NCBI GenBank assembly: GCA_943328785.2
Contig: CALQBJ020000002.1
Span: 1 to 48,812 of the forward strand
Source: Bifidobacterium breve
GTDB lineage: Bacteria; Acidobacteriota; Vicinamibacteria; Vicinamibacterales; CAVVIG01
DNA length: 48,812 nt
Direction of reading: 5' to 3'
The position numbers were made by a program, and so were the translations under genes. The notes below the pieces were generated by a model that was not told the DNA's origin, made no database searches, and saw nothing but the letters and a program-made list of their open reading frames with translations. How positions within the stretch are numbered: the stretch's first letter is position 1; each line of letters starts with the position of its first letter. This document shows, in pieces, positions 4,794-42,711 of this stretch.

Positions 4794-4800
4794 GCCCACT

Positions 4801-26620: not shown

Positions 26621-29464
26621 CTAGAAGCCGATGCGGGCGCCGAGCTGGAGCTGGCGCGGACCCCCGAAGCGGGCGGTCGACGGGGCGAACAGCGGGGTGC
26701 CGGCGGTGGCCACCGGCGCGGCCGCAGTCCCGTAAACGCTGATGGCGTCGTTGCCGAAGGTCCGGTTGGCCGCGCGGGTGGCGTTGAAGAGTTCGGCCAT
26801 CACATCGACCCTGGCACGACCGACGCGAAGCGTCTTCATCAGGCGGAGGTCGAGGTTGAAGAACGACGGCTGCCTGAAGGCATTGCGGTCCGAGACGCGC
26901 CCGTTGATGATCGCGCGGTCGTTGTCGTCGTTGGCGTCACCCTGCTGGTCGCTGCCAATCACCGCGGTGTAGGGCATACCCGAACGCGCGATCATGACCG
27001 CGCCGATCGTCCAGCCGCCCTTCACGTCGAGCACGGTGGAGACGTTGACGTTGTGCCGCACATCCTGCTTCGACCAGGTGTACTCGGAGCCAGGGTCGAA
27101 GACGTTGAGCGTCGTCTCGCGGCTGAAGTTGCGCTCGTTCGAGTCGTCGTCCTTGTTCGACGCCAGCGTGTAGTTGACCTGCGTGAAGAGCCGGCCGGCG
27201 CGCTCGGAGAGCGTCAGGACGAGCGCATGGTAGTCGGAGCGAGCTGTCGACTCGTTCACTTCGATCTGTGCGAACCGGGTGTCGGGCCGTACCCGGGAAT
27301 AGATCGGCGTGCCGGCCGCGTCATAAGTCGGTGGGAAGAGGTTCCGGTCGAGCCGGCGCTGCAGGTTGGTCGTCTTGGCCAGGATGTAGCTGGCCGAGAC
27401 CGTAGTCGAGGCGCCGAGTTGCTGTTCGAGCGCCGCCGACCCCTGGAACGTGCGCGGGTTCGTGAACGCCGGATCGAACCCGAACACGCGCTGCGCCGGA
27501 ATGGTGATCGCGCCGGGCAGCAGCGTCAGCGCCTGCCCGCTCTGCACCAGCGTGAGGATGCTGGCATCGGTGCGGCTGTCGACCGAGACGGCCGTGAAGC
27601 CGTTGTCGGTGAAGACGCGCTGGAACAGGTTGGCCGGCGTGCGGGCGTCGTACAGGCCGCCCGACAACCGGACGACCGAGCGATTGCCACCGTTGACGTT
27701 CCAGGCCAGACCGGCGCGCGGCTGCCACATCGCCAGGTCGTTGGGGATGCGCTGCGTGTAGGACAACGCTGGATTGGGCCGCGTCGGCTGCGGGTTCCAC
27801 TGGCCATCCCAGCGGAGCCCGAGATTCAGGGTGACGTCGCCGAGCGCGATCCGGTCCTGCACGTAGAGGCCCGCTTCCTTCTGCGTCGCCGAGTAGACGA
27901 GGTCGGCCGGATCGAAGCCGGCCACCGTCTGGCGGTAGCGGCTGATGCGTCCCGCCAGGTAGTTGGCGAGCGACGTGTAGTCGAAGCGGCCGAGGGTGTT
28001 CGACTCACGCTGCTGCTCCGAGGGCGTGATGTTCAGGTCGATACCGGCGCGGAGTTGGTGCGCACCGCGCGCCATCGTGAGGTTGTCCGACAGCTGGTAG
28101 CGGGTGTTGTTGAAGACGCGCGGCCGGCCGGTGTCGCCGCCGAGCGTGCCGAATCCGGTGATGGCAATCTGCGGCACATCGGCGTTCGGCGCCTCGTCGC
28201 GGTTGTCCGTGGCCCACTGACCGCGGAGTTCGTTCACCGCCGTGGCGCCGAGGACCGACTGCCAGCTCGCCTTCACGCTGTGGCTCCGGTTCCTGCGCGT
28301 ATAGTTCGCGCTCTCGGCAACATCCTGCTGCGGCGAGTCGAAGTTGAAGTTGGTCCCGCTCAGCCGGCTGGCGGTGACCTGCACGTTCAGGGTCTGACCT
28401 GGCGCAACGTTCACGTCCGAACGGCCGAAGAACGCCGTCGGGTTGTTGGTGCCGCGCTTCTCGCCCTCGAGCGCCTTCAGCGAGTCGGGCACCACGACAC
28501 CCGCGGCCTGCGGCTGGAACTTCACGACGAAGGGCACACGCAGGTAGTTCTGCTCGATGGCCGCGAAGTAGAACGCCTTGCTCGGGACCAGGGCGCCGCC
28601 GAGTGATCCGCCGAACTGGTTCTGCTGGTTGTTCAGCTTCTGGTCGAACGCGTCTGCCGACGTCAGTGTCCGGTTGCGGTTGAAGTAGAAGAGGTCGCCG
28701 CGCGTCGTGTTGGTGCCGGACTTCGTCACCACGTTCACAAAGCCGGCCGACGTCCGGCCCACTTCGGCGCCGAGGCCGGAGCGCACCACCTGGAATTCAT
28801 TGACCGCCGACTGCGGGAAGAAGAACACGGCCTCGTTCCCGCCGCGCTGGTTGCCCTGCAGCGGGTCGTTGAAGTCGGTGCCGTCGATCGAGACGTTCGA
28901 GTTGATCGACCGCTGACCGGAGATGATCATCCCCGAGCGGTCGGACTCCTGGATGATGGCCGGCGTCAACTGCGCGAACTCGGGGAAGCTCCGTCCTCGA
29001 ATCGGCAGGTCGTCGATCGCCGCCAGCGGGATGTTCGTGCCCGAGGCCTGGCCAGAGAGGTCGAGCACCGGCGCGGCTGCCGATACGGCGACCGACTCGG
29101 CCACTCCGGCCACCGACAACGTCAACGTCAGGCCGGCGGTCTCGCCGACCCGGAGCAGCACCCGCTGCTGATGGGTGGCGAAGCCCGACGCGTCCACCGC
29201 GATCTCGTACTGGCCGACCGGGAGTCCGGACAGCTGGAATCGACCCGAGCCGTCGCTGACGGCGGCACGCTGGAAGCCCGTATCGACGCTGCGAAGTCGC
29301 ACCGGCGCACCGGCGATCGTCCCGCCGTTCGGGTCGAGCACCGTGCCGGCGACGGCGGCGGCGCCGGTCTCGGCCTGCGCGAAGAGCGGAGTGGCGATGG
29401 TGCCTGCCGTGGCGCACGCCAGGAAGACTCCGAGGAAGAGTGGTCGAACAGTCGATCGCGTCAT
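26621..29464 (-). CDS. TonB-dependent receptor with carboxypeptidase-regulatory-like domain (TBDR2)
   Basis: Signal peptide, VAGTVLDPNGGTIAGAPVRL...GSGRFQLSGLPVGQYEI, plug-like LPIRGRSF, and C-terminal LGARIGF. GAGGTG RBS. Confidence 0.9.
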   Translation of the reverse strand: MTRSTVRPLFLGVFLACATAGTIATPLFAQAETGAAAVAGTVLDPNGGTIAGAPVRLRSVDTGFQRAAVSDGSGRFQLSGLPVGQYEIAVDASGFATHQQRVLLRVGETAGLTLTLSVAGVAESVAVSAAAPVLDLSGQASGTNIPLAAIDDLPIRGRSFPEFAQLTPAIIQESDRSGMIISGQRSINSNVSIDGTDFNDPLQGNQRGGNEAVFFFPQSAVNEFQVVRSGLGAEVGRTSAGFVNVVTKSGTNTTRGDLFYFNRNRTLTSADAFDQKLNNQQNQFGGSLGGALVPSKAFYFAAIEQNYLRVPFVVKFQPQAAGVVVPDSLKALEGEKRGTNNPTAFFGRSDVNVAPGQTLNVQVTASRLSGTNFNFDSPQQDVAESANYTRRNRSHSVKASWQSVLGATAVNELRGQWATDNRDEAPNADVPQIAITGFGTLGGDTGRPRVFNNTRYQLSDNLTMARGAHQLRAGIDLNITPSEQQRESNTLGRFDYTSLANYLAGRISRYRQTVAGFDPADLVYSATQKEAGLYVQDRIALGDVTLNLGLRWDGQWNPQPTRPNPALSYTQRIPNDLAMWQPRAGLAWNVNGGNRSVVRLSGGLYDARTPANLFQRVFTDNGFTAVSVDSRTDASILTLVQSGQALTLLPGAITIPAQRVFGFDPAFTNPRTFQGSAALEQQLGASTTVSASYILAKTTNLQRRLDRNLFPPTYDAAGTPIYSRVRPDTRFAQIEVNESTARSDYHALVLTLSERAGRLFTQVNYTLASNKDDDSNERNFSRETTLNVFDPGSEYTWSKQDVRHNVNVSTVLDVKGGWTIGAVMIARSGMPYTAVIGSDQQGDANDDNDRAIINGRVSDRNAFRQPSFFNLDLRLMKTLRVGRARVDVMAELFNATRAANRTFGNDAISVYGTAAAPVATAGTPLFAPSTARFGGPRQLQLGARIGF

Positions 29465-29512
29465 GTCACCTCATTTGCATCGTGTTTGATGCTGACCTGA
29501 CGTTATCTGGCG

Positions 29513-29541
29513 GTTGTAGCGCCGCCGTGTCGACGCTGTAA
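29513..29541 (-). promoter_or_regulatory. Candidate sigma70-like promoter for TBDR2
   Basis: On the minus strand, (CG)TTACAG-N17-TACAAC, about 50 nt upstream of the ATG at 29464. Confidence 0.3.
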
Positions 29542-29913
29542 CGATGGCGTGACGGCCTTCCCCCGTGGTCAGTGCTCCGCGCCGCATCGCGAACACGTTG
29601 AACGACGTCGAGAGGACCGTGAGCGACGCGGACGCCAGGATACTCACCAGCAGTTCCGGTGTGCCGCGCGCGAGGTGCACGACGATCTCGAGTCCGTGCG
29701 ACACCAGCGGCAGGATGACGGTGGCGCTCACACACGCCGACGTCCAGTTCCAGTGCTGCAGCAACTGCAGCGGGTGGGCCCAGCACCGATGCCCACGTCG
29801 TGTCGAGCGAGGGTGGCCGGGACGGCGATTCGCGCAGCCCTCACATGGCCCGTCTTCGTTGCGACCGCGTCGCATCTGCGCAACGGTCCTGCAACTTCGC
29901 GCCAGGCCGGCCA

Positions 29914-29943
29914 CTGTTTACGGCGCTGTGCCGCGGCTGTCGT
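29914..29943 (+). promoter_or_regulatory. Three CTGT-initiated heptamers at 12- and 11-bp spacing; Pho-box-like direct repeats
   Basis: CTGTTTA (29914), CTGTGCC (29926) and CTGTCGT (29937), 47-76 nt upstream of the TBDR3 ATG. Confidence 0.3.
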
Positions 29944-29989
29944 CCTTCCTTCACCAGGTGCCTCTAACGTCTCAGCAGGAGTGAAACTG

Positions 29990-32836
29990 ATGCGTCTGAC
30001 CTTCATGATGTGGTGTGTCTGGCTGTCGCTGCTGGCCGTTCTGGCTCCGGCGAGTGCGCAGACGATTGGTGTGACGACCGGAGCGATCAACGGCCGTGTC
30101 GTCGATGACAGCGGTGCGGTGGTGCCGGGTGTCACCGTGTCGGTGACCGGCGCGGCGCAGATGGGCGCGCGCGCCGGGCTGACCGACGAGCAAGGCGTCT
30201 ACCGCGTGCCTGGGCTGGCGCCTGGCACCTACCGCGTCGCTTACGAACTTGCCGGTTTCGGCAGCACGGCCCGCGAGGGGATCGAGGTGGCCGTTGGCTT
30301 CACCGCGACGGTGAACGTCACCATGGGCGTCGCCTCGATCGAGGAGTCGCTCACGGTGCAGGGCGCCTCGCCCGTTGTGGATGCGATGGCGACCCGCATC
30401 CAGACCAACTACACCGCCGAGCGGCTGGCGTCGCTGCCGAGTTCACGCGATATCTGGTCGATCATGGCCGCGTCCCCGGGGGTCCGACAGGCCGTGGTCG
30501 ATGTCGGCGGCGCCTCGGCGGGCAGCCAGTCGCAGTTCGTCACCTACGGCACCCGTGCCCAGAACCAGCCGATGATCGAAGGCATGCTGATGTCGCAGAT
30601 CGGCTCGGCCGGCGGGTCGGTCACCTTCTACTACGACTACGGTTCGTTCCAGGAAGTCTCGGTGAACGCGGCTGGCAACTCCGCCGACATGGCCATGCCT
30701 GGCGTGCAGTTCCAGTTCATCAGCAAGTCGGGCGGCAACGAGTTCCACGGCACCGCACTGGCGAACTACGAGAACCAGAAGATCCAGTCGACCAACATCG
30801 ACGCGGCCCAGCTCGCGGCTGGCATCAACAGCCGCGAGGACAACCGCCTCTTCCGCTTCTACGATCGCAACGCCGACATCGGCGGCCCGCTGAAGCGCGA
30901 CAAGGTGTGGTGGTATACATCGTTCCGAGACGAGAAGTCGCAGGCCCGCTACGCCAACTTCCCGGTGCAGCCGTTCGAGACCCAGTTGACGAACTACACC
31001 GGCAAACTCACCTACCAGCTGTCGAGCCGGGACAAGCTGATGGCTTACGGGCAGGCCGGCAAGAAGCTGCAGCCGTTCCGCCAGGACACCGGCACGATCG
31101 GCGGCCCGGGCGGCTCGCGCACCTTCGCCTTCTTCGATAGCGCCAATTCGACGGCGAACCAGGACTACATTGGCTGGGTCTGGAAGGGCGAGTACAACCG
31201 CGCCCTCAGCGACTCGGCGTTCGCCGAGATTCGCGCCGGCCGTGTCGGCTACACCTGGAAGACCTCCAACTACACCGACGAAACGCGGCGCGAGGACGCT
31301 GGCAACCTTCGCGTCAGCGGCGGCAACACCCAGTGGCGCGAGGATGTCGCGCGCAACCAGGTGCTCGGCTCGGTGAGCCTGTTCAGGACCGGCTGGCTCG
31401 GCTCGCACAACCTGAAGGCGGGGTTCGAGCTCTACCGCGATACGCAGGAGCGCGACCAGATCGGCTACCAGGGCAACGTGCTCCAGGCCTTCAACAACGG
31501 CGCCCCGACCGAGGTGCGCCTCTACCAGCCGTCGTTCTCCATCAATCGCCTCCTCGCGGGCGGCCTCTATGTCACTGATGGTTGGAATCCCACGGACCGG
31601 CTGAACCTCAACCTCGGCGTCCGCATCGACCACTACCGTTCGTACCTGCCGGCGCAGTCGCGTCCCGCGAGCCAGTTCGCGACGGCGGCCGACTTCGCCG
31701 CGGTCGACGACGTCATGACCTGGAACTTGCCGGCGCCTCGCTTCGGCATCACCTACAAGGTGGACACGGTCGGCAAGACGGTCCTCAAGGCGAACGCGGG
31801 CCGCTACTGGTGGAATCCGGACGTCAACGTCGCCGGGAGCGTGAACCCGAACATCGCCACGGCCTACGAGCGGTATGCCTGGACCGACAGCAACGCCGAC
31901 CGCACCTGGCAGCCTGGGGAGCAGGGGCGACTGATTGCACGAGTCGGCGGTTCCGGCCTGGCGCTCGACCCGAACCTGAAGAACAGCTACACCGACGAAC
32001 TGGCGACGTGGCTCGATCACGAACTGTTCCCGAACACGCAACTGCGCACCGGCCTCGTCTGGCGCGGACAGCGGCAGCTCCGCCAGACGCTGAACATCGC
32101 CCAGCCGTTCGCGGCGTTCAACGTGCCGGTGTCGGTGACTGACCCCGGCCCGGACGGCCGCGCAAACACGGCCGACGACGGATCGGCGCTGACGCTGTTC
32201 AATCTCGATCCGGCGTACCTCGGCAAGGTGAACAATCTCGTGCAGAACGTCGACTCGAAGAACGACTACTACACGTGGGAGATCACGGCGAACCGGCGCA
32301 TGGCCCAGGGCTGGTCGCTCATGGCGACCTACGCGATCACCTGGAACCGCGAGAACCTGGCGTCGCCAGGCGCCGCCGCCAACCCCGTGCGTTCGGCCGA
32401 CGCCGCTGTGAATCCGAACGATCTGGTCAACGCCAGCGACGACGGGCGCTATTCCTACGCGCTGTGGAACGCCAAGGTGCACGCCGTTGTGCCGCTGCCG
32501 TGGCAGTTCCGCCTGTCGCCGATGCTGCGGGCGCAGGCCGGGCAGCCGTTCGGCCGGACCTTCGTGACCGCGCTGAACTACGGCAGCCAGCGTGTGCTGG
32601 CCGAACCCATTGGTTCGCGGCAGCAGGCTCACGTGGTGATTGCGGACGCGCGGATCGAGCGGCTGTTCAAGATTCCCGGTCGCAGCAACCGCCTGAGCGC
32701 GCAGGTCGATGTCTTCAACCTGCTGAACGCCAACCCGGTCGACTTCACGACCTGGAGCTCTGGCTCCAGCTTCCTGCGGCCGACCAGCGTGGTGCCGCCG
32801 CGCATCGTCCGCGTCGCGCTGAAGTTCGACTGGTAA
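29990..32836 (+). CDS. TonB-dependent receptor with carboxypeptidase-regulatory-like domain (TBDR3)
   Basis: Internal ATG at 29990 preceded by AGGAG with an 8-nt spacer. Signal peptide MRLTFMMWCVWLSLLAVLAPASA, INGRVVDDSGAVVPGVTVSV...GVYRVPGLAPGTYRV, and C-terminal ALKFDW. Confidence 0.9.
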   Translation: MRLTFMMWCVWLSLLAVLAPASAQTIGVTTGAINGRVVDDSGAVVPGVTVSVTGAAQMGARAGLTDEQGVYRVPGLAPGTYRVAYELAGFGSTAREGIEVAVGFTATVNVTMGVASIEESLTVQGASPVVDAMATRIQTNYTAERLASLPSSRDIWSIMAASPGVRQAVVDVGGASAGSQSQFVTYGTRAQNQPMIEGMLMSQIGSAGGSVTFYYDYGSFQEVSVNAAGNSADMAMPGVQFQFISKSGGNEFHGTALANYENQKIQSTNIDAAQLAAGINSREDNRLFRFYDRNADIGGPLKRDKVWWYTSFRDEKSQARYANFPVQPFETQLTNYTGKLTYQLSSRDKLMAYGQAGKKLQPFRQDTGTIGGPGGSRTFAFFDSANSTANQDYIGWVWKGEYNRALSDSAFAEIRAGRVGYTWKTSNYTDETRREDAGNLRVSGGNTQWREDVARNQVLGSVSLFRTGWLGSHNLKAGFELYRDTQERDQIGYQGNVLQAFNNGAPTEVRLYQPSFSINRLLAGGLYVTDGWNPTDRLNLNLGVRIDHYRSYLPAQSRPASQFATAADFAAVDDVMTWNLPAPRFGITYKVDTVGKTVLKANAGRYWWNPDVNVAGSVNPNIATAYERYAWTDSNADRTWQPGEQGRLIARVGGSGLALDPNLKNSYTDELATWLDHELFPNTQLRTGLVWRGQRQLRQTLNIAQPFAAFNVPVSVTDPGPDGRANTADDGSALTLFNLDPAYLGKVNNLVQNVDSKNDYYTWEITANRRMAQGWSLMATYAITWNRENLASPGAAANPVRSADAAVNPNDLVNASDDGRYSYALWNAKVHAVVPLPWQFRLSPMLRAQAGQPFGRTFVTALNYGSQRVLAEPIGSRQQAHVVIADARIERLFKIPGRSNRLSAQVDVFNLLNANPVDFTTWSSGSSFLRPTSVVPPRIVRVALKFDW

Positions 32837-32840
32837 GCCC

Positions 32841-34403
32841 ATGCGTCATACGGCACACTGCATCATGCGAACGAGTCGTTTGTGGTCGGTCATTACGGCC
32901 AGTCTGTGCACGGTGGCGCTCCTCGGTGTCGGGTCCCTGCGCGGCGGCGCGCAGGGGCCCAACGCCCAGTTGCTGCTGGTGGTCGACGGACTCCGGCCTG
33001 ACTACGTCACCGCGGACGTCATGCCGCGGTTGCTGGCTCTCGGCCGCCGCGGCGTCATCTTCGAGGAGAACCACTCGGTCTTCCCGACCGTCACGCGCGT
33101 GAACGCCTCGTCCATCTCCACCGGCGCCTACCCCGAAACGCACGGGTTGCTCGGCAACACCGTCTACTCGGAACGTGCCTTTCCGAACCGCGGCATCAAC
33201 ACCGCCGACTGGAAGGACCTGGCCGCCATGGAGAAGGCCGAGGGCGTGCTGTTGACCGCGCCGACCCTGGGCGAGGCGCTCGAGACTGCCGGAAAACGTT
33301 TCGACGTGTTCAGCGCCGGCTCGAGCGGCTCGGCCATGCTGCTGAATCCTCCGCTGCACGGCGGCACGGTCGTCAACGCCGACTACATCAGGCCCGAGTC
33401 GATTGCCGCACGGGTGACCGAGCGCATCGGCCCGGGGCCCGCGGAGGCCGTGCCCAATGGGGCACGTAACACGTGGGCGGTTGATGGCTATCTGCAGTTC
33501 GGCCTGGGAGAGTTCAAGTCGGACGTCGCGGCGATCTGGTTCGGCGACCCGGATGCCACCGCGCACCAGACCGGCGTTGGCTCGGCTACGACGCGCCGCG
33601 CGCTGCAATTGGTGGACGAGCAGATCGGACGCATCGAGGACGCGCTGCGCGCGCAGGGCCGACTCGATCGCACCAACATCATCGTCACGTCGGACCACGG
33701 GTTCTCGACGCACACCGGCGAACTGAAGCTGGCGCAGTTGGTGGCGCCGTTTGCCGAGACCATGCCCGACGGCACACCTGACATCGTGGTGACGGAAGGG
33801 GCCATCAACCTGCGCGGCCGCAAGGACGCCGCACGGATCGGCGCCATCGTGGCGGCGCTGCAACGGCGGCCGGAAGTGGGCGCCATCTTCACGCGGCCAC
33901 GCGCGCTGGGCTCCAATGACGGCATAGTGCCGGGTACGCTCGCGTTGACGCTGGCGCGCGGGGCGCACGCACGAGCGGGGGAGATCCTGGTGTCGGCCAA
34001 CTGGAGCGACGACAAGAACGACGCCGGTTTCCCCGGGAAGACCGCGCAGGGCGGTGTCGCCGGTCACGGCACGTCGAGCCGCTGGGATGTGCACAACACC
34101 CTGCTGGCGGCCGGTCCCGACTTCCGCGAGCGGACCACCACCGCGGTGCCGGCATCGAACGTCGACCTGGCGCCGACCATCCTGCGACTGCTCGGCGTCG
34201 GCGTGCCAGCGACGATGACCGGCCGTGTGCTCGACGAAGCGTTCCGGAGCGGGCCGTCACCCGCGTCGGTGGCGGTGACGACGCGCGACGTGCGGTCGGG
34301 GGTGGCGAATGGATATGAAGTGACGGCGCGGATCTCGACCGTGGCCGGGCGCGACTATCTCGACTACACCCGCGTCACCCGAACCACCGACGCTCAGCGC
34401 TGA
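32841..34403 (+). CDS. Nucleotide pyrophosphatase/phosphodiesterase (NPP, alkaline-phosphatase superfamily), secreted
   Basis: LLLVVDGLRPDYV, FPTVTRVNASSISTGAYPETHG, DPDATAH, VTSDHG and GHGTSS are typical of type I phosphodiesterase/NPP. It starts 4 nt after the TBDR3 stop; an alternative ATG is at 32865. Confidence 0.88.
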   Translation: MRHTAHCIMRTSRLWSVITASLCTVALLGVGSLRGGAQGPNAQLLLVVDGLRPDYVTADVMPRLLALGRRGVIFEENHSVFPTVTRVNASSISTGAYPETHGLLGNTVYSERAFPNRGINTADWKDLAAMEKAEGVLLTAPTLGEALETAGKRFDVFSAGSSGSAMLLNPPLHGGTVVNADYIRPESIAARVTERIGPGPAEAVPNGARNTWAVDGYLQFGLGEFKSDVAAIWFGDPDATAHQTGVGSATTRRALQLVDEQIGRIEDALRAQGRLDRTNIIVTSDHGFSTHTGELKLAQLVAPFAETMPDGTPDIVVTEGAINLRGRKDAARIGAIVAALQRRPEVGAIFTRPRALGSNDGIVPGTLALTLARGAHARAGEILVSANWSDDKNDAGFPGKTAQGGVAGHGTSSRWDVHNTLLAAGPDFRERTTTAVPASNVDLAPTILRLLGVGVPATMTGRVLDEAFRSGPSPASVAVTTRDVRSGVANGYEVTARISTVAGRDYLDYTRVTRTTDAQR

Positions 34404-36430
34404 GCCCGGCGCGCGCGCGCCTCGCGAATCATCGCGTCGAGATTGGGGTAGTGCGGGTCGAGCCGCTTCGCGTCGGTCCATCGGTTGATGGCATCGTCGA
34501 AGCGGCTCGCGCGCGCCTCCAGAACTCCGAGATAGACGAGCGGCCTGGGGTCGGCCGGGTCGAGCGCCATTGCCACCCGCAGTTCCCGCTCCGCCTCCAC
34601 ATCCTCCCCCCGAGCCATCTGCAGCCAGCCGAGCGAGGCGTGCTGCGCCGCGCTATCGCCGAGGCTGCGCAGGCTCTCAGCGTACTCGGCCTGTGCACGC
34701 GCGAGGAGCGCTCCGGCTGGAGCCGGCAGCGACGTGACACCGAGCTGCAACAGCGACTCGGCGGCCCTGGTGCGCACTACTCGCGACGGATCCGACAAAC
34801 GGGCCGTCAGGGCACGCTCGCTGACGGCGCCTTCGACCTGACCGAGCGTGGTGACTGCCGCGGCGCGCACCATCGATTCTGGCGCGGACGCCGCCGCCAC
34901 GAGCGGGTTCACGATTGTCGCCGGAGTGGCCGCGCCGTGGGCAGCCGTGCGGGCGATGAGCCGTCCGGCGAATCCTGCGGCGGACGCGCGGATGAGCGGC
35001 GGCTGCGCCGGTGTGGCCGAGAGGGCGGCAATCTGCGGGAGGACCGTGCCGTCGTTGGCGGTGGCGCGGTACAGGACCTCGGTGACCTCCAGCGCCCTCG
35101 TGCGCCGAACCCGATCGCGACGCCCGTACCAGCGGTCCATCACGCCGGCGGCCCATTCGGGCGAGCGGTCGTCGTGACACGTCGTGCACGCATTGGGCAC
35201 GCCAAATCGTCCTGTGACCTCAGGCACGGGCGGCGCGAACGAGTGATCGCGCCGTCGCATCAGCAGGCGCCAGTTGACGTCCGCCATGTGACAGTCGACG
35301 CAGCGGCTGCCGGCTGAGGCTGGCGCGTGATGGGAATGTGTGTCGTCGATTGACGCGTGACACTGCGTGCACAGTTCGTCTGCGCGGGCGAGCGGGACCT
35401 TCAGCGAGTGTTCGTTCGTCGACCCGTGGGCGGCATGACAACTGGCACAGGTAGCCCCGCCGGTCTGGAAGCAGCCGCTCGACGAGAGCGCCTGCGGCCG
35501 GTTGAAGCGGCTCGGCCGTCCGTCCGGCCAGAAGTCGCCCTGCGGGTCGGTCGCCGGCACGGCGTCACTCATCAGCGAGAGCTGGGCGAAGTCGTCGAGC
35601 CGGCTGCCGGGTACGAAGCCCACGAAGTGGTTCGTCTTGTTCCCGTGGCAGTAGGCGCAACTGTCGAACACCGCGGTCTGCGACGAGGTGCGAGGGACGA
35701 AGATAGCGAGCTGCCGGCTGAAGGCCGGGCCGGCGCGATCGGGATCGATGTCAGGGTAGCTCGCGGCGTCACGTCCCCACGCTGTCAGTCGGGTCACGTG
35801 CTCGCGGCCGGGTCCATGGCACGCCTCACAGCCGACTCCGAGTTCGCTCCACGTCGTCGAGTACTGCCGGCTGCGCGGATCAAACTGCCGCCGGATGTTG
35901 GTGGCGTGGCAATTGAAGCAGTTGATGTTCCAGATCTGCCGCTGGTCTCCACCCGTCCGCGGTGCCGGCGTGAGGTCGCGCCAGCCGACCCAACGCTGCC
36001 ACTCACGCTGCCAGAACAGCGGGAGCACGTACATCCGGCCATCGGGCAGTGTCGAGATGTAGCCCTCCAGTCGCTTTTCGCCCAGCGTCAGTTCGGGACG
36101 GAAGTCGGCTGTCGAACCTGCCGAGGTGACGCGCACCGACGGATGCCCAGCTTTCACGGAGGGCGCGTAGCTGTCCGGTCCGTCGCGTACGACGGTCTCA
36201 TCGGTGAAGTTGCCCAGGAGCGGCGCGGTCGATGCCGACTGCGTCATGCGGACGTGCACCGAACGTTGCCAGTTGTCCCAGGCCGCGCGGTGACAGGAAC
36301 GGCACGACTCCGACCCGGCATAGTCCGAGTCGGTGGAGGGCGAGGTCGTCGCCTGGCCGGACAGCGACAGGACGGTGAGGTGTCCGGCGACGAGCACCGC
36401 GGCCATGCGGAGCAGACCCCGCCCGCTCAT
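34394..36430 (-). CDS. Secreted octaheme c-type cytochrome fused to HEAT-like and TPR repeats
   Basis: Signal peptide, then eight CXXCH motifs (CRSCH, CFNCH, CEACH, CAYCH, CASCH, CTQCH, CVDCH, CTTCH) in the first ~430 aa. The C-terminal ~240 aa is Ala/Leu-rich helical repeats ending in TPR-like sequence. ATGA overlap with the upstream gene. Confidence 0.88.
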   Translation of the reverse strand: MSGRGLLRMAAVLVAGHLTVLSLSGQATTSPSTDSDYAGSESCRSCHRAAWDNWQRSVHVRMTQSASTAPLLGNFTDETVVRDGPDSYAPSVKAGHPSVRVTSAGSTADFRPELTLGEKRLEGYISTLPDGRMYVLPLFWQREWQRWVGWRDLTPAPRTGGDQRQIWNINCFNCHATNIRRQFDPRSRQYSTTWSELGVGCEACHGPGREHVTRLTAWGRDAASYPDIDPDRAGPAFSRQLAIFVPRTSSQTAVFDSCAYCHGNKTNHFVGFVPGSRLDDFAQLSLMSDAVPATDPQGDFWPDGRPSRFNRPQALSSSGCFQTGGATCASCHAAHGSTNEHSLKVPLARADELCTQCHASIDDTHSHHAPASAGSRCVDCHMADVNWRLLMRRRDHSFAPPVPEVTGRFGVPNACTTCHDDRSPEWAAGVMDRWYGRRDRVRRTRALEVTEVLYRATANDGTVLPQIAALSATPAQPPLIRASAAGFAGRLIARTAAHGAATPATIVNPLVAAASAPESMVRAAAVTTLGQVEGAVSERALTARLSDPSRVVRTRAAESLLQLGVTSLPAPAGALLARAQAEYAESLRSLGDSAAQHASLGWLQMARGEDVEAERELRVAMALDPADPRPLVYLGVLEARASRFDDAINRWTDAKRLDPHYPNLDAMIREARARRAQR

Positions 36431-37176
36431 CGTCTGGCCGTTGCGAGACGGATGTCGCCGTTGACCGCGTCGATGTTGATCACGGGGGAGGCCTCGCCGA
36501 ACGTCGCCTCGCTGAAGCGGGGACCGGTCGTAGTGCGGACGGTGAGAGGCAAGGCGCTGTCGATCGAGCCGTTCATGGTGAGGGCTAGCACCCGTGCACT
36601 GCGCGGCATATCTGGCAAGGTCAGCTCGATGTCGCCATTGAAGGTACGGAGCCGGACTGCTCCCGTGAGAGCCCCCGCTGCGAGCGAGACCCGCAACGCG
36701 CCCATGGTGGTGTCGAAGCGCAGGGCACCGCTGACGTCCGACGCTTCGATGGTGCCGCGCGTGACCCGTGCCGAGACGCCGCCGGACAGGCCGCGCAGTT
36801 GAAGCGTTCCCTCGAACAGCGCGATCATCGCGACCGGCTGGGTCCGCGGGACGTCGATGACCACGGTGCTCGTGAGCCGTGCGTCGTGTGCACCGTCGGC
36901 CTGGAGCACCGACACCTGAAGCCCCGCTGGCGCGACGTCGATGCGCTCCTCGACGCGCGACAGCGAGGCGCCGCCGGCCGCGCGGTGGTCGATGCGGACG
37001 CGCACGTCCGCGCGGTCCGAACCGAGTACCTGCACGTCGCCGACTGCCACGTCGATGCGGACTGGCGCCGCCGGTTCGAGCCGGAGCGTACGTTCTCGCT
37101 TTCGTCCCTCACCGGCCGCATGGCCGATGAGGACGGTGCCGAGGAGCAGGGCAATGCACACGAGGGCGTTGCGCAC
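36427..37176 (-). CDS. Secreted beta-strand-repeat protein, DUF4097-like
   Basis: Signal peptide VRNALVCIALLLGTVLIGHAAG (GTG start). Repeated G-x-I/L strands (GDVQVLG, GTLQLRG, GTIEASD, NGDIELTL, NGSIDS, NGDIRL). It begins 7 nt after the phoD stop. Confidence 0.65.
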   Translation of the reverse strand: MRNALVCIALLLGTVLIGHAAGEGRKRERTLRLEPAAPVRIDVAVGDVQVLGSDRADVRVRIDHRAAGGASLSRVEERIDVAPAGLQVSVLQADGAHDARLTSTVVIDVPRTQPVAMIALFEGTLQLRGLSGGVSARVTRGTIEASDVSGALRFDTTMGALRVSLAAGALTGAVRLRTFNGDIELTLPDMPRSARVLALTMNGSIDSALPLTVRTTTGPRFSEATFGEASPVINIDAVNGDIRLATARR

Positions 37177-37183
37177 CAGTGGC

Positions 37184-38797
37184 TCAGACGAGGTGGGAGC
37201 CCGGCCGTCCGGCTTCGACGACCAGCGAACCGGTTGTCCGAATCGGTGCGTCCGGCACCGTCACGCGGTCGACGGAGCGAAACTCGGCGCGCATGCTCTT
37301 CGGCGTGGCGGTGCAGGCCACGTACCCACGGCGAGCCCCGTGATACGTGATGTGCGGGTTGTCCACCTTCAGCCGGTCCCAGCCGAGTTGGGTGTCGGAG
37401 CCATCGCCGTTGGACGTAATGGAGGAGTTCGTGAACTCGACGCCGACCGTCCGCGACGCCGGGTTGCGGAAGTCGGCTTTCAGGTCGGACCCGTAGTGCA
37501 TGTGCACGTCGCCGGACAGGACGATCGGATTCGGGGCGGCGGTCTCGGTCAGGCGCGAGTAGAGCCGCTGCCTCGACGCTGTGTAGCCGTCCCACTTGTC
37601 CATGGAGAACCGCGCCTCCGGTGCGAGCCCTGCCGCGTCGCGTGCGAAGGTGGGCACCTGCTGGCCGAGCAGTGTCCACGTCGCGCGTGTGTCGGCGAGG
37701 TTCTGGAACAGCCATCGCTCCTGCGCGTCGCCGAGGATGGTGCGCGACGGCTGGTCGGCTTCGGCGCACCCGGTATGGCTGCCGTCGCCGCAGGCCTGCG
37801 GTGACCGGAACTGTCGCGTGTCGAGGACGCTCAGGTCGATCAGGCTGCCGAACTGCATGCGCCGGTACAACTGCATGTTCGGGCCGGATGGAATCGACGA
37901 TGCGCGCAAAGGCATCGACTCGTAGTAGGCCTGATAGGCGGCCGCGCGCCGCAGCAGGAAGAGCTCGGCCGGCGTGCCGTGCTCGTCGTGGGTGCCCGCG
38001 TAGTTGTTGTCCACCTCGTGGTCGTCCCAGGTCACGATGAACGGCGCCGAGCGGTGGGCCTCCGCCAGGTGGCGGTCCATCTTGTACTGCGCATACCGGT
38101 TGCGATAGTCGACGACGGTATAGATCTCGTCACCATGGTGCTGACGCACACGCGTTTCGTCGCGGCCACCGTCGGCGCGGTACTCGTAGATGTAGTCGCC
38201 GGTGTGGAAGATGAAGTCGAAGTCTTCGTCGGCAAGATGTCCCAGTGCCGTGAAGTGACCTACTTCGTAGTGACTGCAGCCACAGACCGCGAAGCGCAGC
38301 CGGTCGATGGCGGCGCCCGGCGCCGGCGCGGTCTTCGTGCGGCCGGTCTGGCTCACTTCCGAACCGGCCATGAAGCGGTAGAAGTAGCCGCGCGCCGGCT
38401 CGAGTCCGTCTACTTCGACGTGCACGCTGTGCCCGAGTTCCGGGCGCGCCAGGGTGGTGCCGCGCTGCACGATCGTCGTGAACCGGTCGTCCCGCGCAAT
38501 CTCCCATCGCACCTCGACATCGCGCATCGGCATGCCGCCGCCGTCGAGCGGCCGAGGCGCGAGCCGTGTCCACAGCACGATGCCGGTCGGCAGGGGATCG
38601 CCAGAGGCGACGCCCAGCGTGAAAGGGTAGTCGCCAAAGACCGGCTGCGCCAGCAGACCGCTCGACACGAGTGGATCGGCAATGGCCGCCGCGCCGGCCA
38701 TGCCGACGATCTTCAGCAATTGGCGGCGGGAGAGGGTAGCGAGTGTCCGCGGGTACGCGGCAAGGACACGATCGGCGGCAAAACGTTGGCGGGACAT
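37184..38797 (-). CDS. phoD: Tat-exported alkaline phosphatase D
   Basis: Twin-arginine signal SRRQLLKIVGMAGAAA. PhoD N-domain FTLGVASGDPLPTGIVLWTRL, plus FIFHTGDYIYE, WDDHEVDNNY and VLSGDVH. AGGAGG RBS. Confidence 0.92.
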   Translation of the reverse strand: MSRQRFAADRVLAAYPRTLATLSRRQLLKIVGMAGAAAIADPLVSSGLLAQPVFGDYPFTLGVASGDPLPTGIVLWTRLAPRPLDGGGMPMRDVEVRWEIARDDRFTTIVQRGTTLARPELGHSVHVEVDGLEPARGYFYRFMAGSEVSQTGRTKTAPAPGAAIDRLRFAVCGCSHYEVGHFTALGHLADEDFDFIFHTGDYIYEYRADGGRDETRVRQHHGDEIYTVVDYRNRYAQYKMDRHLAEAHRSAPFIVTWDDHEVDNNYAGTHDEHGTPAELFLLRRAAAYQAYYESMPLRASSIPSGPNMQLYRRMQFGSLIDLSVLDTRQFRSPQACGDGSHTGCAEADQPSRTILGDAQERWLFQNLADTRATWTLLGQQVPTFARDAAGLAPEARFSMDKWDGYTASRQRLYSRLTETAAPNPIVLSGDVHMHYGSDLKADFRNPASRTVGVEFTNSSITSNGDGSDTQLGWDRLKVDNPHITYHGARRGYVACTATPKSMRAEFRSVDRVTVPDAPIRTTGSLVVEAGRPGSHLV

Positions 38798-38829
38798 GTG
38801 TACGCCTCCTTTAGTGAGTGCAGGAGGGC

Positions 38830-38852
38830 AGGATATCGATCGCCTGTGACAG
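38830..38852 (-). promoter_or_regulatory. Pho-box-like half-site CTGTCAC 10 nt upstream of a -10-like TATCCT, upstream of phoD
   Basis: Minus strand TCGTCGCGAAG-CTGTCAC-AGGCGATCGA-TATCCT, 33-55 nt upstream of the phoD ATG. Confidence 0.25.
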
Positions 38853-38899
38853 CTTCGCGACGATGGCGTGACGTGTGGGCGACGACTGTCGCCGTGGGG

Positions 38900-40579
38900 C
38901 TAGCGGCGGACCCGGTCCAGCGCCAGCGCACGCGACGTGCCTGCGTGCCGCGGCTCAGCCGTACGGTGGCGGTCGACGGCACCACGCACCGGGGTCTTCG
39001 TGCCGGCGGGGGCCAGCCCCTCGTCATAGTGGGATCCGTTGCCAGGTCGCGGTGTTTCGAGGCGAAGCGGCTTGCCCAGCACCCGTTCGAACGGCGCCGC
39101 GTGTCGCGACGCTGCCCAGAGCTCGAGTTCCGCGTCACCGGACGTCTGCAACTCGATCAGCACGTCGTCGTCGCGCTCCTGCAGCGTCACGCCGGTGATG
39201 ACCTGCGAGTGGCTGCGCTCGAGTGCTTCAGCCAGACGGAGCATCGCCGCCAGCGCGCGGACGGCACGACGGCGCTTCTTCGGCAGTTCGCCGAACTCCG
39301 CGTGCCCGAGACTCGGCACGGCGCGGCGGTGATAGCGGGCGATGAGCGCGATGGTCTCCACATCGAGCGGCTCGAAGCCGCGCAGGTCGCCGTTGCGAAT
39401 CAGGTAGTACGAGTGCTTGTGGTGCTTCTCGTAGCTGATGTGCACGCCGACGTCGTGCAGCAGCGCGGCATACTCGAGCCACTCACGCTCGCGGTCGGTC
39501 ATGCCGTGGATGCTGCGCGTCGTGTCGAACAGCCGCAGGCTGAGCGTCGCGATGTGCTGCGAGTGCTCGGGCGAGTAGTTGCAGCGTTCCGCGAGCTCGA
39601 TGACACTGCGGCGCCGCAGGTCGGGATACTGCTCGGCGTGGACGATCTCCTCGCGATGCCGCGCGACATAGTCGAGCACGATCCCCTCGCGCAGCGACAT
39701 GTCGCAGAGCGTGATCTCGGTGGCCTTCAACCGCTGCAGGATCACGTCGATGAGAATCGAGCCGGCGACCGCGATGTCGCCACGGCGCGGCTCGAGGCCA
39801 GGGATGGTGAGTCGCTTCTGGAGCGGCGCACTGCAGATGGCCTTGCGGGCGCGGCGCATCTGCTTGGCGGAGACGCGGCGGTTGCGCACGCTGGCTGGAA
39901 TCGCGCCATCCTCTTCAGTAGCCGCGATGATGCCGACGCTGAGGATGGAGCCCGACGTCCCAACGACGCGGTCGAATCCGGCCTCGGTGATCTCCTTCAG
40001 GTAGTCCTTCAGCGCCGACTCGATATAGCGGACCATCCGACGTTCGTCACGCTCGCTGATCGGGTCGGACTGGACGAACCGTTCGGTCAGGCGAATGACG
40101 CCCAGCTTGAAGCTCTTGCCGGTGGCCAGCGTCGACCCGGTGCCCTGCGTGATCTCGACGCTGCCGCCGCCAATGTCGACCACCACCGTCACATCGTCCG
40201 ACAGGCCGAGTCCGTAGGCCGCCGCCAGGTGGATGAGTCGCGCTTCCTCCGGGCCGGAGATGATGCGGGCGCGGATTCCGGTCTGCGTGATGATGGCTTT
40301 GAGGAACTCGCCGCCGTTCTCGGCTTCGCGCACGGCGCTGGTGGCGACGGCCAGGGTGCGCTCCACCTGGTGCGACTCCGCGAGCCGGCGGAACTTCGAC
40401 AGCACCTGCAGCGCCGCCTGCATCGCCTTCGGCGTGAGTGCGCGGCCATCGAGGCCGCCAGCGCCGAGGCGCACCATCTCCTTCTCGCGGTCGATGATCT
40501 CGAACGACAGATCCGGGCGAACCCGGACGACGATCATGTGGATGGAGTTCGTCCCGATGTCGATGGCTGCCAGCCGCAT
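38900..40579 (-). CDS. ppx: Exopolyphosphatase / guanosine pentaphosphate phosphohydrolase with C-terminal HD domain
   Basis: MRLAAIDIGTNSIHMIVV, DIGGGSVE (Ppx/GppA ASKHA fold), and the HD region LLHDVGVHISYEKHHKHSYYLI. Confidence 0.92.
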   Translation of the reverse strand: MRLAAIDIGTNSIHMIVVRVRPDLSFEIIDREKEMVRLGAGGLDGRALTPKAMQAALQVLSKFRRLAESHQVERTLAVATSAVREAENGGEFLKAIITQTGIRARIISGPEEARLIHLAAAYGLGLSDDVTVVVDIGGGSVEITQGTGSTLATGKSFKLGVIRLTERFVQSDPISERDERRMVRYIESALKDYLKEITEAGFDRVVGTSGSILSVGIIAATEEDGAIPASVRNRRVSAKQMRRARKAICSAPLQKRLTIPGLEPRRGDIAVAGSILIDVILQRLKATEITLCDMSLREGIVLDYVARHREEIVHAEQYPDLRRRSVIELAERCNYSPEHSQHIATLSLRLFDTTRSIHGMTDREREWLEYAALLHDVGVHISYEKHHKHSYYLIRNGDLRGFEPLDVETIALIARYHRRAVPSLGHAEFGELPKKRRRAVRALAAMLRLAEALERSHSQVITGVTLQERDDDVLIELQTSGDAELELWAASRHAAPFERVLGKPLRLETPRPGNGSHYDEGLAPAGTKTPVRGAVDRHRTAEPRHAGTSRALALDRVRR

Positions 40580-40600
40580 GGTGTCCCTACACTACTCCGG

Positions 40601-40629
40601 TTTACAAAGCAGATCCGCAGCGCGAAGAT
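40601..40629 (+). promoter_or_regulatory. Candidate promoter giving a leaderless sixA mRNA
   Basis: TTTACA-N17-GAAGAT ends 6 nt before the ATG at 40636. No SD is visible. Confidence 0.3.
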
Positions 40630-40635
40630 AGCGGT

Positions 40636-41130
40636 ATGTTCGAGCTCTACCTCATTCGGCACGGCGTGGCGGCAGAACGCGGTCCTGCATGGCCTGACGA
40701 TGCGAAGCGGCCGCTGACCGAGGAGGGCATCGGCCGCATGAAGAAAGCCGCGAAAGGGCTGAAGCGGCTCGATGTCCGCCTGGACGTGGTGGTGTCGAGT
40801 CCGCTGGTGCGCGCGCGGCAGACGGCCGAGGTGGTGGCCGGCGTGTTCGACGAGATGCCGCCGCTGGTGTTCACCGCCGCGCTGGCGCCTGGCGGGCGCT
40901 ACTCCGACCTGCTGGCCGACCTGCAGACGCAGGTGCGTCGCACCAGGATCGCGCTCGTCGGCCACGAGCCCGACCTCGGGCGGCTGGCCGCGCGGCTGGC
41001 CGGGTCGCGCCGCGCCTTCGAGTTCAAGAAGGGGGCGGTCTGCCGCATCGACGTGGACGCGCTGCCGCCCGAACGCTCTAGTACGTTGCGCTGGTTCCTG
41101 CCGCCGTCGATCCTGCGGCGCATCTCGTAG
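40636..41130 (+). CDS. sixA: Phosphohistidine phosphatase SixA
   Basis: LYLIRHGVA (RHG catalytic motif), ARQTAE and VGHEPDL; ~160-aa histidine-phosphatase fold typical of SixA. Confidence 0.85.
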   Translation: MFELYLIRHGVAAERGPAWPDDAKRPLTEEGIGRMKKAAKGLKRLDVRLDVVVSSPLVRARQTAEVVAGVFDEMPPLVFTAALAPGGRYSDLLADLQTQVRRTRIALVGHEPDLGRLAARLAGSRRAFEFKKGAVCRIDVDALPPERSSTLRWFLPPSILRRIS

Positions 41131-41143
41131 GTGGGAGCCGGGA

Positions 41144-41693: not shown

Positions 41694-41915
41694 ATGTTCG
41701 ACCTGAATCTTGCGTCTGGGGGCCACGTTCGTCACTACACCGTTGTGCTGGCTGGTGAGGCCGGCTGGGAAGTGCGGGTGGAAGAAGATCGGGCGGTCCG
41801 GTGGAGTGAAACCTACGAGGACTGGCACCGGGTTGAGCGCAGCCTGGCGCGGGTGAAGCGAGAGATCTCCGAACTGCTCGCGCGCGGGTGGACGATCGAA
41901 TCCGCTAGTCGATGA
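41694..41915 (+). CDS. Hypothetical small protein (73 aa)
   Basis: ATG preceded by AGAGAGG. Globular-looking sequence (GWEVRVEEDRAVRWSETYEDWHRVERSLARVKREI). Its 3' end overlaps the convergent phoB-like gene by 11 nt. Confidence 0.45.
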   Translation: MFDLNLASGGHVRHYTVVLAGEAGWEVRVEEDRAVRWSETYEDWHRVERSLARVKREISELLARGWTIESASR

Positions 41916-42594
41916 AGCGATAGCCGAGACCGATTGAGGTTTCGATCTGGGTGCCGGCGGTGCCGAGCTTCTGGCGCAACCGGCCGACGTGCACGTCGAC
42001 CGACCGGGTCTCGACGAGGCGGTCGTAACCCCACACCCGTTCGAGCAACCGGTCGCGCGACACGACGCGGTTCTTGTTCTGCACGAGGTAGCGCAGCAGC
42101 TCGAACTCGCGCCTGGTGAGCTTGATCGGCTCGCCGTCCACCGCGACCGCCACGGCATCGAAGTCGGCGACCAGGTGCGTGCCTGTGTAGGCGGCTGCCT
42201 GTCGTTCCTCTGGTGCGGCCGCCCGCCGCAGCACCGCCTTCACACGCGCCGTCAACTCGCGCAGGCTGAACGGTTTCGTCACGTAGTCGTCGGCCCCCAT
42301 CTCGAGCCCGGTCACCCGATCGGACTCGCTACTCTTCGCCGTCAGCATGATGATCGGCAGGTGGCGCGCATCGGAGCGCTGCCGCAGCAGGCGGCACACT
42401 TCGAGGCCTCCGAGCACCGGCAGGTTGAGGTCGAGGATGATGAGGTCTGGCGGGCGGGCGGTGACCGCCTTCAAGGCCGCGTCGCCGCTGCCGACGATTT
42501 CGGCTTCGGCATTCCCGCTGCGCTCGAGTGTGTGCTTGATGAGCCCGGCAATGTCCTGTTCATCCTCGACGATGAGCACGCGGTGCTTCTGCAT
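41905..42594 (-). CDS. phoB: PhoB-like OmpR-family response regulator, with no adjacent kinase
   Basis: Close resemblance to E. coli PhoB blocks: DRVTGLEMGADDYVTKPFSLRELTARVKAVLRR; TRREFELLRYL; VWGYDRLVETRSVDVHVGRLRQKL; GLGYRF. ATG at 42594. Confidence 0.85.
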   Translation of the reverse strand: MQKHRVLIVEDEQDIAGLIKHTLERSGNAEAEIVGSGDAALKAVTARPPDLIILDLNLPVLGGLEVCRLLRQRSDARHLPIIMLTAKSSESDRVTGLEMGADDYVTKPFSLRELTARVKAVLRRAAAPEERQAAAYTGTHLVADFDAVAVAVDGEPIKLTRREFELLRYLVQNKNRVVSRDRLLERVWGYDRLVETRSVDVHVGRLRQKLGTAGTQIETSIGLGYRFID

Positions 42595-42711
42595 GTATGA
42601 CGTCCACACTACAGAGCCGACGTTTCGCCGTCGTGTCGGAGCTGTTAATTCTGCGTTACGGCGCCGTCGCGCTGCGTGCTATTCTGCGCCGGAGTGACGG
42701 GTCGCTGGCGG

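Follow-up and report, generated by a model that had tools for sequence, protein, structure and literature searches.

Much of the phosphorus in soils and sediments is locked on Fe(III) oxyhydroxides, and its release on iron reduction is usually regarded as a side effect of anaerobic respiration. In Bacillus subtilis, PhoD has an Fe3+/Ca2+ active site and its gene precedes the dedicated Tat genes of the enzyme, and the operators of Pho regulons (PHO boxes) are built from 11-bp direct repeats, of the CTGTCAT type for PhoB of Escherichia coli and of the GTTCACC type for PhoP of Streptomyces. Among multihaem cytochromes, OcwA of Thermincola potens JR is a nonahaem cell-surface terminal reductase (PDB 6I5B) that follows the plan of NrfA, c554 and MccA, shares with MccA a beta-sheet domain (residues 75-156 of OcwA) and reduces Fe(III) oxides, nitrite and hydroxylamine (PMC6703420). 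Its open-coordination haems are haems 2 and 5, the open active-site haem of c554, OcwA and MccA being haem 2, and its haems 1-4 and 6-9 superimpose on the octahaem core of MccA (PMC6703420). The present analysis concerns a stretch of 48,812 nucleotides (positions 1 to 48,812 of contig CALQBJ020000002.1, assembly GCA_943328785.2, assigned to the Vicinamibacterales of the Acidobacteriota; hereafter the window), in which phoD is followed by the genes of a toastrack (DUF4097) protein and of an octahaem cytochrome c fused to HEAT/TPR repeats. Comparison with related loci makes it probable that, in the subclade to which this cytochrome belongs, the toastrack-cytochrome pair is a member of the Pho regulon, predicted to be co-regulated with a facing operon that encodes an outer-membrane protein (OMP) and an NPP-family phosphodiesterase. 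The loci compared (L numbers) and the window are metagenome-assembled genome (MAG) or metagenome contigs throughout, and the evidence is all genomic. A preliminary description of this DNA had held that the arrangement is undescribed in Pho regulons, and no precedent was found in the literature searched, in which neither a Pho-regulated multihaem cytochrome nor a study characterising this cytochrome family, including in Vicinamibacteria, came to light. A Pho-regulon phosphatase/transporter cluster is here combined with an NrfA/OcwA-type cytochrome, whose domain fusion and partner are undescribed.

The three genes lie on the minus strand in the order phoD (37184..38797, 537 aa), toastrack gene (36427..37176, 249 aa, with a GTG start) and cytochrome gene (34394..36430, 678 aa), and all are open reading frames (ORFs) with high third-position GC. 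Seven nucleotides (gccactg) separate the phoD stop codon TGA from the GTG of the toastrack gene, whose stop codon is joined to the cytochrome start in an ATGA overlap, and these last two genes appear to be translationally coupled. An AGGAGG Shine-Dalgarno sequence is located at 38810-38805, 7 nt before the ATG of phoD, and none comparable to it was found at the toastrack and cytochrome starts. The minus strand from 34394 to 38797 contains no terminator-like hairpin, the hits of the terminator scan being at chance level; a sigma-70 consensus scan of 33800-41200 found no promoter, and no additional Pho-type site was found within the three-gene unit. The layout recurs, with 1-4-nt overlaps, in L081, L082, L206/207 and the ENA contig holding P0005. 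Because of this tight coupling, the lack of a terminator, the one Pho-box-type promoter upstream of phoD and the same arrangement in close relatives, phoD, the toastrack gene and the cytochrome gene probably constitute one transcription unit under Pho control, headed by phoD. The preliminary description had proposed such an operon from the close packing of three same-strand genes, the strong ribosome-binding site only at phoD and the absence of a hairpin between the genes; each of these observations is upheld, and the single Pho-box-type promoter and an arrangement shared by four or five close relatives now favour the operon as well. Its placement of the triad amid a phosphorus island is equally sound: besides the convergent NPP gene and a Ppx gene upstream of phoD (38900-40579), the island in the window encodes PstB, PhoU, a PhoH-like protein, a PAP-like phosphoesterase, a SixA-like phosphatase, a PhoB-like regulator and a porin.

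The phoD product was first described as a Tat-exported PhoD, and this identity as a PhoD-type alkaline phosphatase/phosphodiesterase is confirmed by the Pfam domains PhoD (PF09423, 5.9e-107) and PhoD_N (PF16655, 1.9e-33), by the match of residues 52-533 to B. subtilis PhoD (2YEQ, E = 3e-163) and by the twin-arginine motif SRRQLLK (SRRQLLKIVGMAGAAA at residues 23-38). The Tat call rests on the motif, the Pfam TAT_signal score of 17.2 bits being under the cut-off of 22.7, and the NCBIfam model NF058638 (641 bits against a cut-off of 1000) places the protein in the PhoD family, not at equivalog level to the Bacillus-type model. Like its counterpart in B. subtilis, this close homologue of 2YEQ is Tat-targeted, heads a multigene operon and is preceded by a PhoP/PhoB-type direct-repeat operator, whereas the genes that follow it are those of a toastrack protein and a multihaem cytochrome. 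The original DUF4097-like assignment of the toastrack protein also stands, with PF13349 scoring 28.9 bits against a gathering score of 22.9 (E 8.9e-07, residues 138-244); the protein is LiaG-like at 4e-12 but misses the LiaG equivalog (45.8 vs 285 bits), and a sequence-based search of the DUF4097 profile against solved structures found no relative. A hydrophobic signal-like segment is present at its N-terminus, and the N-terminus of the cytochrome is of the Sec type, without a lipobox; as judged by eye from these N-terminal sequences, both proteins are likely to be secreted. In the closest relative, the DUF4097 orthologue (L081:9243-10004) departs abruptly mid-sequence in the alignment, as a frameshift in this MAG or an error in its assembly might produce.

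When the sequences that precede phoD in the window, L081 and L082 were aligned, a putative operator block conserved in all of them emerged (38830..38883, minus strand), in which GTCGC (38883), GTCAC (38872), GTCGC (38861) and GTCAC (38850) are phased by 11 bp and followed, after 10 nt, by a -10-like hexamer, TATCCT (38835-38830). This predicted acidobacterial operator resembles the Pho boxes of E. coli and Streptomyces in its 11-bp period, its GTCAC core, its position 10 nt before the -10 element in place of a -35 element and its occurrence upstream of phosphatase and transporter genes, but its repeats are more degenerate and GC-rich. When phased three-repeat sites were scored (maximum 15), the window was found to contain two sites at the strict threshold of at least 13/15, against 0.1 expected: the one upstream of phoD and another, with 13/15 at 29553, upstream of a divergent Oar-type OMP gene (29464..26621, minus strand), the putative Pho-box-type operator of which spans 29500..29555 on the minus strand (sequence read directly). 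A composite motif, consisting of a score of at least 10/15, 10 nt and TAnnnT, occurs 19 times on both strands of 5.15 Mb of unrelated loci, and six of the 19 occurrences are directly upstream of PhoD or OMP-PhoD genes (L123, L125, L127, L128, L129 and L132). These PhoD-upstream occurrences in other MAGs validate the motif in silico, independently of the window. That of L132 (L132:5933) lies ~70 nt upstream of PhoD in a MAG of the alphaproteobacterial Geminicoccaceae, and the operator definition may be applicable beyond Acidobacteriota.

The facing OMP-NPP operon has a weaker Pho-box-type promoter (29925..29970, plus strand), in which GTGCC/GTCGT/TTCAC in 11-bp phase, 10 nt and TAACGT stand 63 nt upstream of the ATG at 29990; the orthologous OMP in L081, L003, L198 and L199 is preceded by the same composite element. 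The candidate reader of these operators is an OmpR-family response regulator closest to PhoB (41905..42609, minus strand; Pfam Response_reg and Trans_reg_C), whose best NCBIfam match is TIGR02154 PhoB, at 229 bits and below the cut-off of 296, and whose gene is syntenic in L081 and L082. PhoR is not adjacent to it, and the other response regulator/histidine kinase pair of the window resembles the heavy-metal type.

Conservation was examined in three sets of loci from other species: 80 with cytochrome homologues, 80 with the closest PhoD proteins (47-70% identity) and 35 of the DUF4097 subfamily. PhoD is found within 10 kb of the cytochrome in none of the 80 cytochrome loci, DUF4097 or a cytochrome within 6 kb of PhoD in none of the 80 PhoD loci, and PhoD in none of the 35 DUF4097 loci. 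The triad is kept in L081 (cytochrome identity 77%), in L082 (65%), in the contig holding P0005 (65%), where PBP1 and not ppx lies upstream of phoD, and on further metagenome contigs of the same species. The triad genes thus appear to travel together within a narrow lineage, among relatives at ≥65% identity only, and the recurrence across Acidobacteriota that the preliminary description had put up for testing holds for these close relatives and fails in the three sets of other species. Because the triad is absent from all three, PhoD seems to be a recent addition in the innermost branch, not the conserved partner of the cytochrome.

That partnership is instead seen in the subclade of the window cytochrome (subclade a), which consists of 12 or more contigs at 53-78% identity and includes L081, L082, L001 and L003, with L198, L199, L200 and L202/203 (54-56% identical) added. 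In this subclade the toastrack gene precedes the cytochrome gene, mostly with a 4-nt overlap, and the pair always lies tail-to-tail with an NPP gene that is preceded by an Oar-type OMP gene, as in L001, L003, L081, L082, L198, L199, L200, L202/203 and L204/205; the NPP-facing loci group as one clade in a neighbour-joining (NJ) tree. Upstream of the toastrack gene, PhoD, an animal-type haem peroxidase, a beta-lactamase-fold protein, a class-II aldolase or DUF4177/Usp may be encoded. Since the remainder is kept across these differing flanks, the stable unit appears to be the toastrack-cytochrome pair facing the NPP and OMP genes. Of 13 promoter regions of subclade a, 12 contain the composite motif, 50-161 nt before the start codon, where ~0.01 would be expected by chance. 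It is carried by the toastrack promoters of L003, L198, L200, L001 and L202/203, all of which lack PhoD, and by the OMP-NPP promoters of the window, L081, L003, L198 and L199, and is missed by the toastrack promoter of L199 through a 1-nt phase shift. In PhoD-less L003 (9079-9128), L198, L200, L001 and L202, the toastrack start is called 7-18 nt after the -10-like hexamer, and this short spacing would fit mRNAs with no leader or a very short one, unless the starts are mis-called. L003 (Terriglobia MAG SRVP_36) also encodes, just upstream of its Pho-box/toastrack-cytochrome unit, a 985-aa An_peroxidase homologue (5951-8908, Pfam 2.6e-60), the gene of which is preceded by that of a patatin-like protein.

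These comparisons bear on two options that were considered at the outset. Fortuitous adjacency, the first of them, is borne out for PhoD itself, whose position beside the pair is lineage-specific, but does not extend to the link with phosphorus in general, because PhoD-less pairs keep a Pho-box-type promoter and face an OMP-NPP operon that has one too. The second option, that the cytochrome provides PhoD with its iron or keeps this iron poised, or does so for the PAP-like phosphoesterase, is disfavoured and is quite improbable. It would accord with the Fe3+/Ca2+ site of B. subtilis PhoD and the homology of the window phoD product to 2YEQ, with the predicted co-transcription of phoD and the cytochrome gene in the window lineage and with the presence of a PAP-like enzyme in the island. 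The pair is kept without PhoD, however, in at least six related contigs and two further subclades, PhoD orthologues at 47-70% identity never carry the cytochrome (80 loci), and the neighbour that is conserved, NPP, is no iron enzyme. Moreover, PhoD is exported by Tat, a system that as a rule transports proteins already folded and often loaded with their cofactor.

The main rival explanation, possible though rather unlikely, is that the pair is a passenger that happened to land beside phosphorus genes in this lineage and whose redox work lies outside phosphorus metabolism, for example in periplasmic electron transfer or in the reduction of a soluble oxyanion or oxidant. Read-through from phoD would then be without adaptive meaning, and the pair would simply be expressed under phosphate stress. 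The separation of PhoD and the cytochrome in both sets of 80 loci agrees with this explanation, as does the SMAG_U9489 MAG, in which the PhoD orthologue (L119) and the DUF4097-cytochrome pair (L008) lie on separate contigs, and enzymes of the OcwA type reduce nitrite and hydroxylamine as well. It also draws on group I of the NJ tree, ~50 of the 80 loci, the members of which probably perform phosphorus-unrelated redox chemistry and stand in a conserved, housekeeping-like synteny without phosphorus genes (for example L006, L009 and L064, among L001-L080): an OMP, tryptophan 2,3-dioxygenase, a kynureninase-like protein and the cytochrome are encoded in this order, convergent with a CarboxypepD_reg-TPR protein, followed by NamZ/beta-lactamase, DUF420 and CtaB (haem O synthase). 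Against a passenger role stand the Pho-box-type promoter that the pair itself has in PhoD-less relatives, the retention of the NPP-OMP partner across five upstream flanks and the 12 motif matches in the subclade promoters, far above chance expectation.

Across the cytochrome family, the commonest neighbour is the convergent CarboxypepD_reg-TPR protein (60 loci), and the NamZ/beta-lactamase fusion is found in 44 loci. Group II of the NJ tree contains three subclades in which the toastrack gene adjoins the cytochrome gene, immediately upstream on the same strand in two of them and convergent downstream in the third, and a cytochrome adjoins DUF4097 in ~15 of the 35 DUF4097-subfamily loci. No composite motif above background was found upstream of the cytochrome or DUF4097 genes in the other subclades and in group I. 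A family-wide functional meaning of the adjacency to Oar-type OMPs was considered and rejected in view of the conserved synteny and the abundance of such OMPs; shared predicted promoters support the adjacency only in the NPP-linked subclade.

The cytochrome had been described as a 678-aa protein with eight CXXCH haem sites and a repeat tail, and this description is fully corroborated: the motifs are at C43, C171, C201, C258, C328, C354, C377 and C415, and every Cys and His in them is invariant among 82 homologues. An AlphaFold2 (AF2) model (predicted local distance difference test, pLDDT, 82.8; predicted template modelling score, pTM, 0.85) comprises a haem domain at ~residues 36-423, with a beta-sheet insert at 81-149 between haems 1 and 2 (pLDDT 83-94), and an all-helical HEAT/TPR solenoid at ~residues 424-678 (pLDDT above 90). 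The repeat character of the tail is also indicated by Pfam HEAT_2, at 27.6 bits marginally below the cut-off of 27.7, and by matches of the family profile to alphaRep and CTPR repeat proteins (E = 1e-52 to 1e-38). The family includes >1270 proteins at E <= 1e-10, the listed top matches sharing the haem-HEAT/TPR architecture; it occurs mainly in MAGs of Vicinamibacterales and other Acidobacteriota, under generic database names only.

The best PDB match to the haem domain is OcwA (6I5B; E = 2.1e-23 with the family profile, and 5e-18 and 3.7e-12), followed by 'multiheme cytochrome cf' (6QVM) and then by c554 (1BVB, E = 2e-05), and a weak match to Pfam Cytochrom_C552 was also obtained. Foldseek comparison of the full-length AF2 model with the PDB returned TPR/HEAT repeat proteins only, because the solenoid swamps the haem domain; an AF2 run on the haem domain (14 sequences) had a pLDDT of 43.6 and was excluded from the fold search, so that the relationship to OcwA rests on sequence and profile searches and not on structure. 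Haems 1-3 of the window protein align with haems 1-3 of OcwA, and its last four with OcwA haems 6-9. The cytochrome thus appears to belong to the NrfA/c554/MccA/OcwA lineage. It has in common with OcwA the beta-sheet domain between haems 1 and 2, the C-terminal helices and the NrfA/c554/MccA design, but differs in having eight haems instead of nine, with no counterpart of OcwA haem 5 (CLKCH), and a 250-residue HEAT/TPR solenoid where OcwA has a short three-helix bundle. It also comes from a diderm and carries a Sec signal only, whereas OcwA is respiratory and has no link to phosphorus genes. With MccA, NrfA and c554 the likeness is that exactly the MccA-like octahaem core positions (1-4 and 6-9) are kept; in contrast to them, the window protein has no CX15CH or CXXCK special haem motif, no detectable full-length similarity, an added repeat tail and a toastrack partner instead of one of the NrfH/MccC type. 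A conduit of the MtrCAB type was rejected, as no MtrB-type porin, lipoprotein decahaem or periplasmic decahaem partner stands beside the cytochrome. Such porin-cytochrome conduits likewise involve multihaem cytochromes proposed to reach Fe(III) minerals, but the similarity of the window cytochrome to MtrC domains is faint (E = 0.0076) and its neighbours are Oar-type TonB-dependent transporters, NPP, PhoD and Ppx.

Two further rivals concern the biochemical role of the pair. The cytochrome may itself convert a phosphorus compound or an analogue of one, for instance by oxidising phosphite in the periplasm or by handling arsenate, with an open haem and an Arg/Asn/Gln pocket as the site of reaction. 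The predicted Pho control would suit such an enzyme, and the most conserved non-haem block of the family, DGRPSRFNRPQAL, can be aligned, if weakly, with the stretch of OcwA that covers haem 2, which is the open haem in c554, OcwA and MccA. This alignment is, however, of low confidence, the group-I members have no phosphorus context, and the absence, to our knowledge, of any haem enzyme for phosphite oxidation or arsenate handling of this kind also counts against this rival, which we consider most improbable. A role as an envelope scaffold or sensor, in which the toastrack protein would join the HEAT/TPR tail in a periplasmic complex for assembly or signalling and the haems would sense redox state instead of serving as a catalytic wire, is improbable too. 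It is in keeping with the association of toastrack domains with envelope-stress systems (LiaG, PspC partners), with the fact that protein-interaction repeats make up half of the cytochrome protein and with the 18 loci in which the DUF4097 subfamily lies near a response regulator without a cytochrome; but eight invariant haem sites and homology to catalytic and terminal reductases suit electron transfer better, and no kinase or anti-sigma domain is fused to the pair or stands beside it. In these ~18 loci (L085-L113, e.g. L087:6001-6744) the response-regulator gene is ~4 kb upstream on the other strand, and several of the genomes concerned carry a group-II cytochrome elsewhere.

The facing operon begins with the gene of an Oar-type TonB-dependent outer-membrane protein (29990..32836, plus strand, 948 aa), followed by that of the NPP-family phosphodiesterase (32841..34403, plus strand; Pfam Phosphodiest 3.9e-36). 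The OMP has a CarboxypepD_reg N-terminal extension (5.3e-17) and a beta-barrel (OMP_b-brl_4, 3.8e-26; both Pfam). Its start is the ATG at 29990, where a signal peptide begins, the mechanically called GTG at 29549 (1095 aa) being too far upstream; 948 aa is also the length given by gene callers for the orthologous OMP in relatives. This correction leaves a divergent regulatory region of ~520 bp, common to this gene and the OMP gene at 29464. The Oar subclass of TonB-dependent transporters includes Oar of Myxococcus xanthus, which moves protein outward across the outer membrane (PMC6434023). The OMP next to NPP resembles this subclass in its CarboxypepD_reg extension and barrel but differs in its pairing with a phosphodiesterase and in its Pho-type promoter. 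At the other end of the operon, the NPP and cytochrome genes overlap tail-to-tail by 10 nt, which leaves no space for a terminator, and transcripts from the two convergent genes would collide; the same 10-nt overlap is retained in L081, L082, L201 and L204-207.

The window contains another pair of this kind, an Oar-type OMP gene followed by that of the PAP-like metallophosphoesterase (17290-20220 and 20240-21760), and OMP-PhoD pairs of similar design are found in L123, L140, L152 and L178, so that an Oar-type OMP with a secreted phosphoesterase seems to recur as a two-gene unit across these phyla. ARAGORN called a 93-nt tRNA-Ala(GGC) at 21416-21508, within the PAP-like ORF; this call, the sole one in the window, is probably a false positive. 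An Rfam scan of the whole window gave no match. Elsewhere in the window, a biotin cluster (bioB, bioF, bioD and bioA) occupies 4738-8996; bioA corresponds to ~7578-8996, and the longest ORF there begins far upstream within bioD.

The best overall explanation of these observations is that the pair forms part of a Pho-controlled module with some role in phosphorus acquisition, a tentative explanation to which we give slightly less than an even chance. Under phosphate scarcity, a PhoB-like regulator would jointly induce the cytochrome, the phosphoesterases and the outer-membrane transporter. PhoD would leave the cytoplasm via Tat, and the toastrack protein and the cytochrome via Sec; the toastrack protein and the HEAT/TPR tail would then keep the cytochrome in a complex. 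The cytochrome would take electrons from the respiratory chain and reduce the Fe(III) that holds phosphate or organophosphate, either in minerals or in chelates carried through the TonB-dependent protein, and this reduction would release substrate for NPP and PhoD. The Fe(III) reduction gains some plausibility because OcwA, the solved protein to which the haem domain is closest, reduces Fe(III) oxides, but as a specific mechanism it is doubtful. The full form of the proposal, a dedicated, PhoB-controlled reductive mobilisation of phosphorus in which an OcwA-like octahaem reductase, kept in place by its toastrack partner and its own HEAT/TPR tail and either exported through the Oar-type protein or acting on chelates imported by it, would free Fe(III)-held phosphate or organophosphate for NPP and PhoD, is more doubtful still.

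Several points weigh against this proposal. The similarity to OcwA is modest, OcwA haem 5 is lacking in the window cytochrome, and OcwA also reduces soluble N-oxyanions, so that the homology does not single out iron. The absence of phosphorus genes and of a Pho box from group I indicates that the basic chemistry of the family is not phosphorus-specific. NPP enzymes are typically Zn enzymes, and the conserved neighbour therefore gives no link to iron. Beside the cytochrome gene there are no genes for an inner-membrane quinol dehydrogenase, an MtrB-like porin or a lipoprotein cytochrome, and the cytochrome has no lipobox; the proposal accounts neither for its electron supply nor for the route of a periplasmic protein to mineral Fe(III). 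The problem of access could in principle be answered by export of the cytochrome or NPP through the Oar-type protein, or by action of the cytochrome on Fe(III)-organophosphate chelates imported through it. Finally, the Pho box was assigned by analogy, with a motif defined on the window before its validation elsewhere, and every instance of the unit is a MAG or metagenome contig.

Even if the idea of iron reduction fails, the predicted acidobacterial Pho box and a large uncharacterised family of cytochrome-HEAT/TPR proteins will stand. The locus also offers testable handles, namely a four-to-five-gene unit, the predicted acidobacterial operator and carriers of the subclade with and without PhoD. 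It raises the possibility that phosphorus scavenging is tied genetically to redox chemistry, perhaps that of iron. If the proposal is true, it would represent the first genetically defined coupling of the Pho regulon to Fe(III) reduction, and iron reduction would also be a nutrient-acquisition strategy with its own regulon in bacteria that are abundant in soil and wastewater.

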